From the NCBI RefSeq assembly GCF_056712565.1, contig NZ_CM160072.1: a stretch of DNA of 64,000 nucleotides; one strand, written 5' to 3'. This document shows, piece after piece, positions 2,469 to 29,069 of this stretch; position 1 is the stretch's first letter, and every line of letters starts with the position of its first letter. Made by a program: the position numbers and the translations under genes. The notes under the pieces were generated by a model. It did not search any database, was not told the DNA's origin, and worked only from the letters and a program-made list of their open reading frames with translations.

Positions 2469-3590
2469 TTATGACTCCAGCGCGATCGCCACGTCGTAGC
2501 CGTGAGATTTCAGCAGAGAGTGTTTTTTCGCCGCTTCGAGGTCATTAGCCACCATTTCAGACACCATCTCTCTGAGGGTGATTTCCGGTTTCCAGCCCAG
2601 TTTTTCGTGCGCTTTGGTCGGGTCGCCGAGCAGCGTTTCAACTTCTGCCGGGCGGAAGTAACGCGGGTCAACGGCGATAATCACATCGCCCGGTTTAACG
2701 CCCGGCGCATCATGCCCGGTGACGGAAACCACAATGCCCTTCTCTTCAACGCCCGTGCCTTCAAAGCGCAGTTTGATACCCAACTGTGCCGCCGCCATTT
2801 CTACGAACTGACGCACGGAGTACTGAACGCCGGTAGCAATTACGAAATCTTCCGGCTGTTCCTGTTGCAGCATCATCCACTGCATTTTTACGTAGTCTTT
2901 GGCATGGCCCCAGTCACGCAGGGAATCCATATTGCCGAGGTACAGGCACGACTCCAGCCCCTGGGCGATGTTGGCGATTGCGCGGGTGATTTTGCGGGTA
3001 ACGAAGGTTTCGCCGCGGCGCGGGGATTCATGGTTGAAGAGAATACCGTTACAGGCGTACATGCCGTAGGATTCGCGGTAGTTAACGGTGATCCAGTAGG
3101 CGTACAGTTTGGCGACCGCATACGGAGATCGCGGGTAGAACGGCGTGGTCTCTTTCTGCGGAATTTCCTGCACCAGACCGTACAGTTCAGAGGTGGAAGC
3201 CTGATAGAAACGGGTTTTCTTTTCCAGACCGAGGAAGCGGATCGCCTCCAGCAGGCGTAGCGTACCCATCGCATCGACGTCTGCGGTATATTCCGGTGAC
3301 TCAAAAGAAACCGCAACGTGGCTCATTGCGCCCAGGTTGTACACTTCATCCGGCTGCACTTCACGCAAAATACGCGTCAGGTTGGAGGTATCACTCAGGT
3401 CGCCATAATGCAGATGGAATTTCGGGTTGCAGGTGTGCGGATCCTGATAAATGTGATCCACGCGCTCGGTGTTGAATGACGATGCACGACGCTTAATACC
3501 ATGCACCTCGTAACCTTTTTCCAGCAGAAACTCTGCCAGGTAAGAACCGTCTTGTCCGGTTACACCGGTGATGAGAGCAACTTTTGACAT
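2469..3590 (-). CDS. gmd: GDP-mannose 4,6-dehydratase
   Basis: 373-aa [34 protein letters not shown], classic Gmd N-terminus. Confidence 0.95.
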
Positions 3591-24834: not shown

Positions 24835-26784
24835 TCAGCAGCGGCTTAAATCAGCCTTCGCCTGAGCCAGTTTTTCTGCCGCCTGACGTAGCGGCTCCAT
24901 CAACGGCATGGTCCGTGCTGGAGCATGAAGGCGGAATCGCTGCAACTCTGTCGCACCGACAGTCAACGCCGATTCCAGCCGATGTCGTTTGGCGGTCATT
25001 TTCGCCATTACCGCTTGTCTGTCTGCTGGCGTTACCGCTTCATTCGGCCTGAACACAAAACGGCGTTCGCAACTCGCTTTCCAGTCGATAACCGCCTGGG
25101 TCAGATGATCACCAAAACCTTTTACTTGCTTAACGCTCCGTCGGGTAACGTCTGCCGCCGTTTCAATACCAAAGGACCGTAACGCCGCTTTACGCGCAGG
25201 GCCAACGCCGGGAATAGAGGCAACATCAATAAAAAATCCCTCCAGAAACTTCTGCTTCTGCCGTTCCCTTGCGGTGTCCTGAAGTGCTGCCAGATCGCGC
25301 TTTTCTTCTTCCGGTAACCCAAGAATTTCGTCCTTCATTTTTTCGAGCCTCGCCCGTTTGGCGATAAAACCTTCCAGCCCGCCCAACTGCTGGATCTGGC
25401 TGACTAAATGGTCATAGTCCATTTTCGCGCGATTAAACGCCTCACGGCGTTGCTGGATTTCTGCTTTGTACGCTTTGCTTGTCAGGCTGCCAATAATCCA
25501 GATAGCCGCCAGCACAGGAATCAAAATAATATAACTCGGTTCTGCCTGAAGGCCGCAAAACAACAGCGATAACGCTGACAGTGCGATCTCAATCAGAATG
25601 ATGTATTCGCGCCGTAACAGGCCTAAAGGAAGCGACCTGCCAGTCGGTTGGAAATGATCGGGTAATGGCAATTGCAATGCTGGCGGTGCTACTGATGCCA
25701 TCACCATCGCCCAGACTCTCGCCAGCACAAAATCACCGCCGGTGGTAATGACCTCTTCACCGAGATCAATAAAATAGATAACGCCTTGATTATCCAGCGC
25801 ACACCACGGGCAGTCAGTCAAATGAGCGGGGTAAACATGCATTGCCGAAACGGTACATTTCTTTAACTGTTGGCGTAGTAAATCAAGTGCCGCTACCCAC
25901 GCTTTTGCCGTCGGACGCCCGGTTGCCACGCCACTTTCCGTGAATGCCTGCTGAAACATGGCTTCAACATCGCCCGGTAACATCGACAGCGGAATCGATC
26001 GTGGCGGCGGTTTTAAACCACGTCGCTGATTATCTGAGGCGTAGGCATAACGGAAATGGGCAATATCCGTCTCCAGCGCATTACCTGCATCAGAGATAAG
26101 CGGTACACCGGAATAAGGATGCCGCCCACCAAACAAGATGTGAAATATCAGCAACGCAAGGCCAAAATTATCGTGATTTTCTGTGCGTTCAAAGCCGACA
26201 AATGATGGCATGGTTTGCAGCTCTGGCGGCGTAAAATGCGACACGCCGACTTCGCATAAATGCAGTGTACCATTGGCATTAATCTGAAAGGAGTCGCTAT
26301 CAATCAACACCACTTTGCTGTCGCGACCTACCATAAAGCTGTTCTGGTTTACGTCACCCACGACGTGCCCGTGCTCATGAACAGTAGCAAAAGATGAAGC
26401 AATATTGCGCGCAACATAGAGTAGAAAATCCCACGCACAATGAGGGTAACTCTGGCGACGATGTGCCGGGCTATAGATCATATGAATCGGTTCTTTACCA
26501 GAAACTTTTGGCATCATAAAACCGATAACTTTTCCGCCTCGTCCACCGTGAAGCGTTGCCTGCGGCCAGGCGACATAATTCAACAACTGCGCGTCAGCTG
26601 TCGCAGCCATAAAGGCAAGTTTGTCCTGTTTTAAGGCGGGTGGCGGCGTGTGATAAATCTTGGCGACGCTATCGACAAACTCCTCGATATCATAAACCGC
26701 ACCTTCGCCGCCTTTGCCCAGTTCACGGCCAGGCGTAACGCACTCACCAGTAGCAGTATATAAAGTGGGTTTCATGGTAACCAC
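24835..26784 (-). CDS. yegI: Ser/Thr protein kinase-like protein YegI
   Basis: 649-aa ORF; kinase-like N-terminal half, predicted TM segment, C-terminal helix-hairpin-helix-like region; start may be MKPTLYT. Confidence 0.85.
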   Translation of the reverse strand: MVTMKPTLYTATGECVTPGRELGKGGEGAVYDIEEFVDSVAKIYHTPPPALKQDKLAFMAATADAQLLNYVAWPQATLHGGRGGKVIGFMMPKVSGKEPIHMIYSPAHRRQSYPHCAWDFLLYVARNIASSFATVHEHGHVVGDVNQNSFMVGRDSKVVLIDSDSFQINANGTLHLCEVGVSHFTPPELQTMPSFVGFERTENHDNFGLALLIFHILFGGRHPYSGVPLISDAGNALETDIAHFRYAYASDNQRRGLKPPPRSIPLSMLPGDVEAMFQQAFTESGVATGRPTAKAWVAALDLLRQQLKKCTVSAMHVYPAHLTDCPWCALDNQGVIYFIDLGEEVITTGGDFVLARVWAMVMASVAPPALQLPLPDHFQPTGRSLPLGLLRREYIILIEIALSALSLLFCGLQAEPSYIILIPVLAAIWIIGSLTSKAYKAEIQQRREAFNRAKMDYDHLVSQIQQLGGLEGFIAKRARLEKMKDEILGLPEEEKRDLAALQDTARERQKQKFLEGFFIDVASIPGVGPARKAALRSFGIETAADVTRRSVKQVKGFGDHLTQAVIDWKASCERRFVFRPNEAVTPADRQAVMAKMTAKRHRLESALTVGATELQRFRLHAPARTMPLMEPLRQAAEKLAQAKADLSRC

Positions 26785-27533
26785 AGCGCCAGTGCCAACG
26801 TTTTATCATCATCCGTACGCTCGTTTACCGCCGGGCTGGACAAAAACTGCTTTAACAATTCAGGTAATAAATCGAGTTGTTCCTGCGTTGCTGACGCCAG
26901 TCCATTGAAAAACGGGGTAAAGAAAGGCACATGCGGAGAATTATCCAGCATATTTAACGCCAGTCGCTGAATACCATCCGTAAATGCTGCAACTTTGTGC
27001 GCACGCTCAGTGCTGGTGAAAGTTTCCAGTCTGGAAACGGCATCTTCATCGGTAATGAAGTGCGTCATATTGGTATATTCACCCACCATCGGCGTGAGCG
27101 GCAGTTGCAAACCGTGCCCCAAATCTACCACCACGCCGCCATCGCCAATCTGCATAATCAAGGTGCCATTAGCTGATGAAATCAATCCCAAAAACGTGCA
27201 GGCAAAATCGCGAACCGCTAATTCTTTGGCTTCCGCCTCGGCAAAAAGTCGCTGACGAATGGTCAGCACAATGTCCGTTGCGAGGACATCATTAAGCCCC
27301 AATTCCCCGCCCTGCATTTTTTGCGACATATAAGCCATCGCTTCATTGACGGCGAGCATCGCACCTTCGCCACCCTGCGAGACGCTGCCTGCGCCATCAG
27401 CGACAAATACCGACAATAATGGCTGCTGGTCATTTAGCCAGGCAACCTGCATCTGGCAGGCATCCTGGCAAGGCAAATCAGCGCTAATATGCGACGTTCC
27501 AACGGCTGATGCATAGACCAGTCGCCAGCTCAC
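26772..27533 (-). CDS. pphC: PP2C-family Ser/Thr phosphatase PphC (YegK)
   Basis: 253-aa [29 protein letters not shown]; overlaps yegI start and yegL stop. Confidence 0.85.
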
Positions 27534-28189
27534 ACTGACGTCCAGCCTTTTGGCGCTTCCAGCACAACTTCCGTTCCCGGCGTGGAGCGGGAAACCGAAC
27601 GCAGCGAACTGGATAACCAGCTAAACAGTTCACGGAATTGTAATCCCTGCAGAGACAAAGGCTGACGGACGCTGATTTGGGCCAGCGTCTTCATATCCGC
27701 CCCCTGAACACCGATGGTAAAGAAGGCAAACTTCTTATCTTCTTCCCCCTGAAACACTTTGTTGGCGGCAGCCTGCCACTCATCGGTTGGTGCGCCATCG
27801 GTGATCAGGAAAATCCACGGACGATAATAGGAAATACCATTGGCACGATATTCACGTTTCCGCTCCTCAACCATATCCAGGGCTTTGGTAATGGCAGCGC
27901 CCATTGGTGTATCGCCCTGGGCAAACAGGATGGGCGGGAAAAAATTAGCGGCGCTGGTAAAGGGTTGTTCCACATGCACCGGGCCGAACGTCACAATGCC
28001 GAGTTCCACTCTTTTTAAGGCCAGCGAATCGGCAAGCAGCTCATCGCGAAAGGTAACCAATCCGGTGTTAAGTTCATTAATGGGTCTGCCGCTCATCGAG
28101 CCAGAAACATCCAGCAGCAAAATGCAGGGGCAACGTGGTTCCGGGTTACTGGCAAAATCGCTGGTGGCAAACGTGATTTGTTCGCTCAT
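27530..28189 (-). CDS. yegL: von Willebrand factor A domain protein YegL
   Basis: 219-aa ORF with vWA MIDAS-like motif DVSGSMSG. Confidence 0.8.
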
Positions 28190-28362
28190 AAGAAATCCTT
28201 TCTTAGAGAATTATTGAGGTCCGGTATCATACCGATTGCAATAATGAAATAAGAGCAAACGAAGAAACTTTCAGAATTAGGCCCGGCGGCGCAGAAAATT
28301 TTGCTATTCGCCTCGCAAGAACGGAGAGCCGTCGATTGACACTAAGGGCGGAGTGACATAAT

Positions 28363-28513
28363 TTCAGGAGTGAGGGTAGAGCGGGGTTTCCCCCGCCCTG
28401 GTAGTCTTAGTAAGCTGGCCAGCTAATGACTAAGAGCACCACGATGATGAGTAGCTTCATCATGACCCTTTCCTTATTTAAGGCCCCTTCCTCGGGAGGG
28501 GCTTTCCCGTTTC
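28363..28513 (+). ncRNA. sibA: Sib antisense sRNA, copy 1 (approximate ends)
   Basis: Plus-strand transcript antisense to the ibs ORF, ending at the GC hairpin ggcccc...gggaggggc followed by a short T-run (28481..28513). Confidence 0.45.
28407..28463 (-). CDS. ibsA: Ibs-family type I toxin, 18 aa (MMKLLIIVVLLVISWPAY)
   Basis: Minus-strand ATGATGAAGCTACTCATCATCGTGGTGCTCTTAGTCATTAGCTGGCCAGCTTACTAA, read by hand; too short for the ORF track; A/B assignment is by position only. Confidence 0.7.
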   Translation of the reverse strand: MMKLLIIVVLLVISWPAY

Positions 28514-28690
28514 AGCGTCCCGCTGAAATCTTCGGCTTACCTCCTTTCGCCCTGTATGCAGTCTATCGCTGACTTGCGGATAAAATAGTTTCAAGTGTGA
28601 TTATTGCGTAACGACTCGCAAAGAATATTTGCTGGCAGGATCGCAGACTGCAAAGTCTGCGGATTGACAATTGGACCGTGAAGGCATACT

Positions 28691-28841
28691 TTCAGGAGTG
28701 AGGGTAGAGCGGGGTTTCCCCCGCCCTGGTAGTCTTAGTATGCTGGGTAGCTAATGACTAAGAGCACCACGATGATGAGTATCTTCATCATGACCCTTTC
28801 CTTATTTAAGGCCCCTTCCTCGGGAGGGGCTTTTCCGTTTC
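28691..28841 (+). ncRNA. sibB: Sib antisense sRNA, copy 2 (approximate ends)
   Basis: Second repeat unit; same hairpin terminator at 28809..28841. Confidence 0.45.
28735..28791 (-). CDS. ibsB: Ibs-family type I toxin, 18 aa (MMKILIIVVLLVISYPAY)
   Basis: Minus-strand small ORF within second repeat unit, read by hand. Confidence 0.7.
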   Translation of the reverse strand: MMKILIIVVLLVISYPAY

Positions 28842-28998
28842 AGCGTCCCGCTGAAATCGTCGGCTTATCTCCTTTCGCCATGCAAGCAGTCTATCGCTAA
28901 CGCGTAGATAAAATAGTTTCATGTGTTATTACTGGATGCGTGCTCGCAAATGTGCCCGTCATTCAGACGATTCCCGACAGTGTTTCATAATTCCTCCA

Positions 28999-29016
28999 TT
29001 TTTCTCCCTTATTGGC
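28999..29016 (+). promoter_or_regulatory. BaeR box upstream of mdtA (tttttctcccttattggc)
   Basis: Matches the BaeR consensus TTTTTCTCCATDATTGGC as I recall it, ~55 nt upstream of the mdtA start. Confidence 0.6.
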
Positions 29017-29069
29017 TGGCTACACTAGTATCATTCCGCGAAACGTTTCAGGAAGAGAAACTCTTAACG

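Follow-up and report, generated by a model that had tools for sequence, protein, structure and literature searches.

A compact yegL-pphC-yegI operon and its yegJ-containing alternative at one Escherichia coli locus

Genes and junctions of the compact operon

The window, that is, the whole stretch of 64 kb analysed here, carries on its minus strand three open reading frames arranged head to tail, yegL, pphC and yegI, with 4-nt overlaps at both junctions (Table 1). The operon lies in the chromosomal context alkA-yegD-yegI-pphC-yegL-(ibs/sib)-mdtA, as established by tblastn of K-12 proteins and by the annotation of an identical genome. A 1-kb probe around the pphC-yegI junction matches the type strain of E. 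coli (DSM 30083 = ATCC 11775) with 100% identity, and the RefSeq annotation of this identical type-strain genome (NZ_CP033092) contains the same gene calls.

Table 1. Coordinates of the operon, its junctions and the K-12 gene yegJ (window positions, or L001 positions for MG1655)
Feature	Position	Strand	Basis
yegL, vWA-domain protein, 219 aa, first gene of the triad	27530..28189	-	ORF list; Pfam VWA E=2e-10; RefSeq annotation
yegL stop/pphC GTG start, GTGA overlap, 4 nt	27530..27533	-	Minus-strand sequence
pphC, PP2C phosphatase, 253 aa	26772..27533	-	Translation; Pfam PP2C_2 E=1.7e-51; C-terminal W-x-P common to distant homologues
pphC stop/yegI start, ATGA overlap, 4 nt	26772..26775	-	Sequence and RefSeq annotation
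yegI, membrane Ser/Thr kinase, 646 aa	24835..26775	-	Translation; RefSeq annotation; kinase activity from bioRxiv 10.1101/819920, 10.1101/303594
Allele-specific segment, 49 bp (yegI codons 1-15, last two pphC codons and stop)	26732..26780	.	Pairwise and 15-sequence alignments
yegJ (b2071), DUF2314, 462 nt, 153 aa	L001 7186-7647	+ (opposite to yegI/pphC)	Annotation; Pfam

On the minus strand, the TGA of pphC occupies positions 26774-26772 and the ATG of yegI positions 26775-26773, the junction reading, on the coding strand, ...GCG CTG TGG TTA CCATGAAACCC... The longest open reading frame of yegI begins at an in-frame GTG at 26784, which gives a 13-nt overlap with pphC. The annotated start is the ATG at 26775, which matches residue 1 of YegI in all the relatives included in the alignment.

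Inspection of the sequence before the yegI ATG reveals no recognisable Shine-Dalgarno motif in the compact allele. This fact, together with the stop/start overlaps, suggests that the translation of yegI is coupled to that of pphC. Thus, yegI would be translated by ribosomes terminating on pphC, a proposal made from sequence features only, and the kinase and its antagonist phosphatase would be produced in fixed proportion. The functional link between both proteins has an experimental basis, since YegI has been identified as a substrate of PphC (Rajagopalan et al. 2018, bioRxiv 10.1101/303594), and the kinase activity of YegI has been described by Rajagopalan and Dworkin (bioRxiv 10.1101/819920, 10.1101/303594). 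Robust expression of the operon was not detected under the conditions tried in those studies (bioRxiv 10.1101/303594, 10.1101/819920).

The K-12 allele and the anatomy of the replacement

In MG1655 (NC_000913.3, locus L001), the 5' end of yegI (L001 6986) and the stop codon of pphC (L001 7712) stand 725 bp apart, and yegJ is located between them. The same position, on the other strand, has been published for both MG1655 and W3110 (bioRxiv 10.1101/303594, 10.1101/819920). The original prediction had described a compact yegL-pphC-yegI operon in which the end of pphC runs directly into yegI, leaving no room for yegJ, and had placed an oppositely oriented yegJ between these two genes in K-12. Both points are confirmed: the minus-strand reading frames and the RefSeq annotation of the window agree on the compact operon, tblastn detects no yegJ homologue in the whole 64 kb, and in MG1655 the 462-nt b2071 lies on the plus strand between two genes that do not overlap. 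Only the extent of the overlap has to be corrected, as 26772..26784 had been counted from the GTG at 26784, and the annotated ATG reduces it to 4 nt.

Pairwise and 15-sequence alignments match the 49 bp of the window at 26732-26780 with 784 bp of K-12 (L001 6937-7720). The difference between the two alleles is a replacement and not a clean insertion. In the K-12 segment, the final two codons of pphC and the first ~15-17 codons of yegI are recoded, and the segment further comprises yegJ, a hairpin and a spacer rich in AT. PphC has 253 aa in both alleles, with the C-terminus ALWLP* in the window versus ALWAE* in K-12. The N-terminus of K-12 YegI, MKTNIKVFTSTGELTTLGRELG, differs from that of the window and is recognisably homologous to YegI from other species, for instance that of Klebsiella spallanzanii (MKGHLYTSTGDAVTLGRELG). 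The boundaries of this cassette directly abut the DNA encoding conserved peptides, a 12-residue stretch in PphC and GRELGKGGEG in YegI. Three synonymous differences located to the left of the boundary (26701, 26707 and 26710) were considered as part of the imported tract and ruled out, as they vary independently of yegJ status.

The cassette bears no convincing terminal repeats, no target-site duplication or flanking direct repeats, and no transposase or integrase gene; a single weak 21-nt pair with 71% complementarity is found near its ends, and its sole open reading frame is yegJ. A search of the cassette for window sequence, including the compact junction in inverted form, gave only chance 10-13-mers.

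The GC content of the cassette is 38%, falling to 29% in the spacer of about 199 bp between yegI and yegJ, versus ~51% in the genes of the triad. Sigma-70-like sites are more numerous in the cassette (8) than in shuffled sequences (2.8 +/- 2.3), and one of them, ATGATA-17-TACAAT, has been listed as the yegJ promoter by Shimada et al. 2014 (PMC3946193), who reported an RpoD-binding, H-NS-flagged spacer with divergent yegI and yegJ promoters. The hairpin, with a perfect stem of 11 bp (L001 7674-7703), lies 8 nt beyond the pphC stop and is not followed by a T tract, and a terminator scan identified no intrinsic terminator in the cassette.

The K-12-type allele is probably derived, a 784-bp AT-rich cassette having swapped out the 49 bp at the junction. 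The cassette would have brought with it the opposite-strand yegJ, a divergent promoter spacer to which RNA polymerase and H-NS bind in vitro, the hairpin, two new final codons of pphC and a divergent 5' end of yegI. As a consequence of the exchange, yegI would be uncoupled from pphC and would be expressed from the AT-rich, H-NS-bound spacer instead.

Distribution, ancestry and origin of the two alleles

The locus was found in 5415 of the 5426 complete E. coli genomes sampled. An 80-bp junction probe (at least 93.8% identity) detected the compact junction in 3470 of the 5426 (~64%), including ST131, O157:H7, O111:H8, BL21 and the type strain, and a yegJ probe detected this gene in 1924 of the 5426 (~35%), 1156 of them with at least 99% and 768 with 95-99% identity to K-12 yegJ. 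Carriers of yegJ include the K-12 derivatives and also 042, APEC O78:H4 E123, eco-241, TUM1586 and the chicken isolate CM2. Seemingly intermediate yegJ alleles in E. coli, with 79-86% identity, proved to be frameshifted or truncated calls. K-12 and BL21 belong to phylogroup A, 042 to D, O157:H7 to E, and the type strain and ST131 to B2, so that both alleles coexist within one phylogroup and yegJ is present in several.

Six yegJ-positive alleles were compared in detail. All share identical sharp boundaries and conserve an intact yegJ; they diverge by 4-7% over the cassette as a whole and by 1-5.4% in yegJ itself, the values for the flanking genes yegD and mdtA being 0-4.5% among the same strains. 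The pphC gene of the yegJ-less window differs by 3.1% from those of the yegJ-positive strains TUM1586 and CM2, and by 8.4% from those of BL21 and O111, which also lack yegJ. The presence of yegJ is incongruent with the phylogeny of the flanking genes. Both this incongruence and the divergence inside the cassette indicate that it is approximately as old as the diversity of the locus, and that it has been reshuffled by homologous recombination. Thus, the cassette allele is not a recent K-12 event; it appears to be old and widespread, and to have moved between backgrounds through such recombination.

The state that came first was approached by scanning a PphC alignment against one genome per GTDB species, which yielded 30 loci from other species. 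In all 30, yegL, pphC and yegI are contiguous and co-oriented, yegI begins -4 to +20 nt from the end of pphC, and YegJ homologues are absent within ~5 kb of the triad. These loci belong to Escherichia spp., Klebsiella spallanzanii, many Burkholderiales, Pseudomonas, Planctomycetota, a cyanobacterium, Paenibacillus, Saccharibacillus and an acidobacterium. Inside the genus, Escherichia sp. MOD1-EC7003, Escherichia sp. E1V33, E. whittamii and strain E69, four lineages set apart from E. coli by GTDB, conserve the syntenic order alkA-yegD-yegI-pphC-yegL-mdtA in its compact form, and in these four, which were compared in this respect, the N-terminus of YegI is similar to that of the window. A fifth non-coli lineage, E. 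marmotae, shows the same synteny, with a 4-nt overlap and without yegJ. The overlap between pphC and yegI is ATGA in MOD1-EC7003, E1V33, K. spallanzanii and E. marmotae, and GTGA in E. whittamii and E69. Moreover, the C-terminal W-x-P of PphC is common to the window and to distant homologues, the yegJ alleles ending in AE* or TE* instead.

Judging from this comparison, the module was compact in its ancestral form, as supported by the 30 loci, the five non-coli Escherichia lineages and the conservation of W-x-P in the compact allele. By parsimony, the compact form would also be the ancestral state at the Escherichia locus, and the change would have proceeded from compact to cassette, although the heavy recombination observed at this locus weakens a parsimony argument based on outgroups.

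Regarding the origin of yegJ, the homologue search found the closest YegJ proteins outside E. coli (75-76% aa identity) in Superficieibacter electus and in a related metagenomic genome, and reported the gene from no further named genus of Enterobacteriaceae. In both genomes, which lack the triad, yegJ is flanked by yegD and mdtA. Nucleotide identity between Superficieibacter and K-12 is 75% for yegJ, 77-79% for yegD and 75-79% for mdtA/B, as would be expected from vertical co-divergence. Thus, the Superficieibacter gene is likely an orthologue of E. coli yegJ, which may have resided in the yegD-mdtA interval for a long time rather than being random foreign DNA. Other YegJ homologues, with 55-69% identity and from environmental bacteria, appear in unrelated contexts and never beside vWA, PP2C or kinase genes; among these contexts and the 30 loci from other species, no lineage other than E. 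coli carries yegJ within a triad. A protein search with the K-12 N-terminus for a donor of the cassette, that is, of a MKTNIKVFTSTGELTTLG-type YegI N-terminus, yielded nothing beyond E. coli fragments and artefactual reads. The insertion of yegJ into the triad through a single inversion or a Campbell-type integration was also considered and discarded by reasoning, as neither yields the gene order observed.

Taking into account all these data, the window carries the compact allele of a known two-allele E. coli locus, the K-12-type cassette allele being probably the derived one. The opposite polarity, in which yegJ was original to the yegD-mdtA interval and the compact E. coli allele is secondary, its junction having been replaced by recombination with a foreign compact triad, seems improbable to us. 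It would account well for the position of yegJ in Superficieibacter and the related metagenomic genome and for its co-divergence with the flanking genes; E. coli yegJ alleles match the species-wide divergence at the locus and are all intact, and the family consensus is matched by the K-12-type N-terminus of YegI (..TTLGRELG) no less closely than by the compact one (..VTPGRELG). However, five out of five non-coli Escherichia lineages are compact, with the window-type YegI N-terminus in the four compared, the family-wide W-x-P of PphC is found in the compact allele and non-canonical endings in the yegJ-positive ones, and yegJ is reported from no other named genus of the family. Furthermore, this scenario still requires the entry of yegJ into a module that is unsplit in the 30 loci from other species.

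A more elaborate proposal, which we regard as doubtful, is that the triad is hypervariable and defence-like, and that the presence or absence of the yegJ cassette in it is an ancient polymorphism maintained by selection. In this scenario yegJ, native to the yegD-mdtA interval, would have been captured inside the operon and would act as a switch, breaking the coupling between pphC and yegI and putting the kinase under the control of a promoter silenced by H-NS. If this were true, the two alleles would represent two regulatory states of one kinase/phosphatase system, kept by balancing selection.

Even less credit can be given to the idea that yegJ was simply inserted and that the 5' end of yegI then evolved fast in place, selected for an AT-rich, uncoupled start. 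The first codons of K-12 yegI are indeed very AT-rich and resemble the adjoining spacer, and the lack of hits outside E. coli in the search for a donor N-terminus would agree with this possibility. However, K-12 and the window differ by ~17 substitutions and a 6-nt indel in 45 nt (~60% identity), whereas the following 300 nt are identical, and the same sharp boundary is found in six out of six yegJ-positive alleles.

Finally, a recent insertion of yegJ restricted to the K-12 lineage, with all other E. coli being compact, has to be discarded despite the presence of the gene in K-12 and its derivatives, its absence from B strains, O157:H7 and ST131, and its assignment to K strains only by Gopel et al. 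2026, since 1924 of the 5426 genomes carry it, 768 of them with alleles 95-99% identical to that of K-12, the carriers include 042, APEC O78:H4 E123, TUM1586, eco-241 and CM2, and the cassettes diverge internally by 4-7%. This affects the original prediction, which had suggested that the compact operon might be ancestral and yegJ an insertion of the K-12 lineage. The first half is sustained for the module by the 30 loci, the five Escherichia lineages and W-x-P. The second half has to be abandoned: unrelated natural isolates (042, APEC O78:H4 and TUM1586 among them) carry yegJ, its alleles are up to 5.4% apart, as deep as the neighbouring core genes, the exchange of 49 bp for 784 bp includes a divergent but genuine 5' end of yegI, and a likely orthologue occupies the yegD-mdtA interval of Superficieibacter.

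The relevance of this polymorphism lies in the fact that E. coli has few eukaryotic-like Ser/Thr kinase/phosphatase pairs, of which this locus encodes one, and that nearly all the functional work has been carried out in K-12. Since K-12 has the minority allele, which would be derived and in which kinase and phosphatase would be uncoupled, results on expression or phenotype obtained in this strain may not be transferable to the ~64% of strains with the compact allele (O157:H7, ST131, B and the type strain among them), nor vice versa.

Relation to known systems

The organisation of the operon recalls that of translationally coupled ATGA/GTGA gene pairs, as its genes overlap by 4 nt at either junction and yegI has no evident Shine-Dalgarno sequence before it.

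A second likeness concerns the TerY-P triad, which, according to the account of it given in PMC11090510, consists of a TerY-like vWA protein, a PP2C phosphatase and a Ser/Thr kinase (STK) (Anantharaman et al. 2012) and has been treated as a defence system (Gao et al. 2020). In yegL-pphC-yegI, the vWA, PP2C and STK genes are adjacent and co-oriented (Pfam VWA and PP2C_2, the kinase assignment of YegI being taken from the literature), so that the same three domains appear in the same order, in one packed operon and with a sporadic distribution across phyla. However, the kinases of TerY-P systems carry a C-terminal zinc ribbon or OB fold (PMC11090510), whereas YegI has membrane segments and neither of these domains, its C-terminal part giving in Pfam only a sub-threshold HHH_5 match (residues 515-551, 21.7 bits versus a cut-off of 27). 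The TerY-P profiles of PADLOC do not recognise the operon either: YegL gives a marginal TerY match (E=0.0089) with no significant stretch, PphC gives no match, and YegI matches weakly only the MkoA and PD-T4-6 kinases. No anti-phage or tellurite-resistance phenotype has been reported for yegL-pphC-yegI in the papers on these genes cited here. Because of the lack of a PADLOC profile match and of a zinc-ribbon or OB-fold fusion, the operon is TerY-P-like in its organisation but is not a member of this group. The vWA "ternary" conflict systems (Kaur et al. 2020) were set aside, as their architecture is different.

The closest precedent is the locus itself. The dimorphism was already published in 2018-2020: Rajagopalan, Nagle and Dworkin 2018 (J Bacteriol; bioRxiv 10.1101/303594) found yegJ to separate pphC from yegI in K strains, in contrast to B strains, and Rajagopalan and Dworkin 2020 (FEBS Lett; bioRxiv 10.1101/819920) described the ATGA overlap in REL606 and O157:H7. 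The feature found here is the same, and the window adds one more strain to those with the B/O157-type allele. Those papers do not report which segment is replaced, how frequent each allele is, the states in other species or the age of the yegJ allele. Thus, the replacement of 49 bp by 784 bp, the frequencies, the depth of yegJ, the outgroup states and the orthologue in Superficieibacter are refinements and not discoveries. Both papers, as well as Gopel et al. 2026, in which yegJ is said to occur solely in E. coli K strains, treat this gene as a feature of K strains, a view that the genome counts show to be too narrow. This claim of the recent literature needs to be corrected; in all other respects, the locus presents an ordinary and known difference between strains.

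Sequence variation in pphC and at the start of yegI

Unusually high polymorphism across E. coli is found in the N-terminal two thirds of the phosphatase gene pphC (27096-27496 in the window), where nucleotide diversity amounts to 6-9% per 100-nt window. Pairwise divergence of pphC within the species reaches 8.9%, a level as high as that seen when E. coli is compared with other species of the genus, whereas the neighbouring genes yegD and mdtA differ by 0-4.5%. The pphC of strain E69, an Escherichia set apart from E. coli by GTDB, is about 19% different. The variability of pphC is suggestive of diversifying selection on this gene or of its repeated introgression.

Directly to the left of the allele-specific segment, the 5' region of yegI (26400-26700) is identical in K-12 and the window over approximately 300 nt, the remainder of the gene differing between them by 3-8% per 60 nt; diversity of this region across E. 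coli is 0.7-2.3%. A shared recombination tract, or an additional constraint, may be the cause of this identity. Just ahead of the glycine-rich loop of the kinase, at codons ~18-22, YegI reads GLELG in the yegJ-positive strains 042 and APEC E123, the otherwise conserved form being GRELG.

Degenerate alleles and variable cargo

Rare degenerate alleles of a third type have been found at pphC-yegI in two E. coli strains. In TB06051 (locus L051, 2594-4321), a deletion has eliminated the 3' portion of pphC together with the 5' portion of yegI, and both genes are annotated as pseudogenes. In BS-04 (locus L050, ~3506-3529), a few bases are missing at the ATGA junction, leading to a shift in the ends of both genes; this gap could be an assembly error.

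The spacer between yegL and mdtA contains Ibs/Sib type I toxin-antitoxin repeats, whose number depends on the strain and ranges from one to four in E. coli (two in the window and in K-12, one in 042, and four in BL21 and eco-241).

Features of the yegL-mdtA interval in the window
Feature	Position	Strand	Location
yegL-mdtA spacer	~28190-29069		
ibs toxin genes	about 28407-28463 and 28735-28791	minus	yegL-mdtA spacer

In Superficieibacter, yegJ occupies the yegD-mdtA interval (S. electus, L033, 6001-11261; a related genome, L034, 6001-7035), and one of these genomes carries an immunity-type block (SUKH, Tli3, Tle3_C and Imm52) together with yegJ where the yegL-pphC-yegI triad would sit. Across the Enterobacteriaceae, this stretch between yegD and mdtA has the appearance of a hotspot where the cargo varies.

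The N-terminus of YegJ

The YegJ alleles diverge at the end of a signal-peptide-like N-terminus (codons 15-20), TUM1586 and CM2 presenting a cysteine (TASYC), as does Superficieibacter (AAGYC), and K-12 lacking it (TAGFS). Several distant homologues contain a lipobox-like L-x-G-C motif. Judging from these sequences, the presence or absence of the cysteine, taken together with the lipobox-like homologues, indicates that the localisation of YegJ may differ from allele to allele. The K-12 protein is regarded by Gopel et al. 2026 as cytoplasmic, yet as damaging to the membrane if overproduced.
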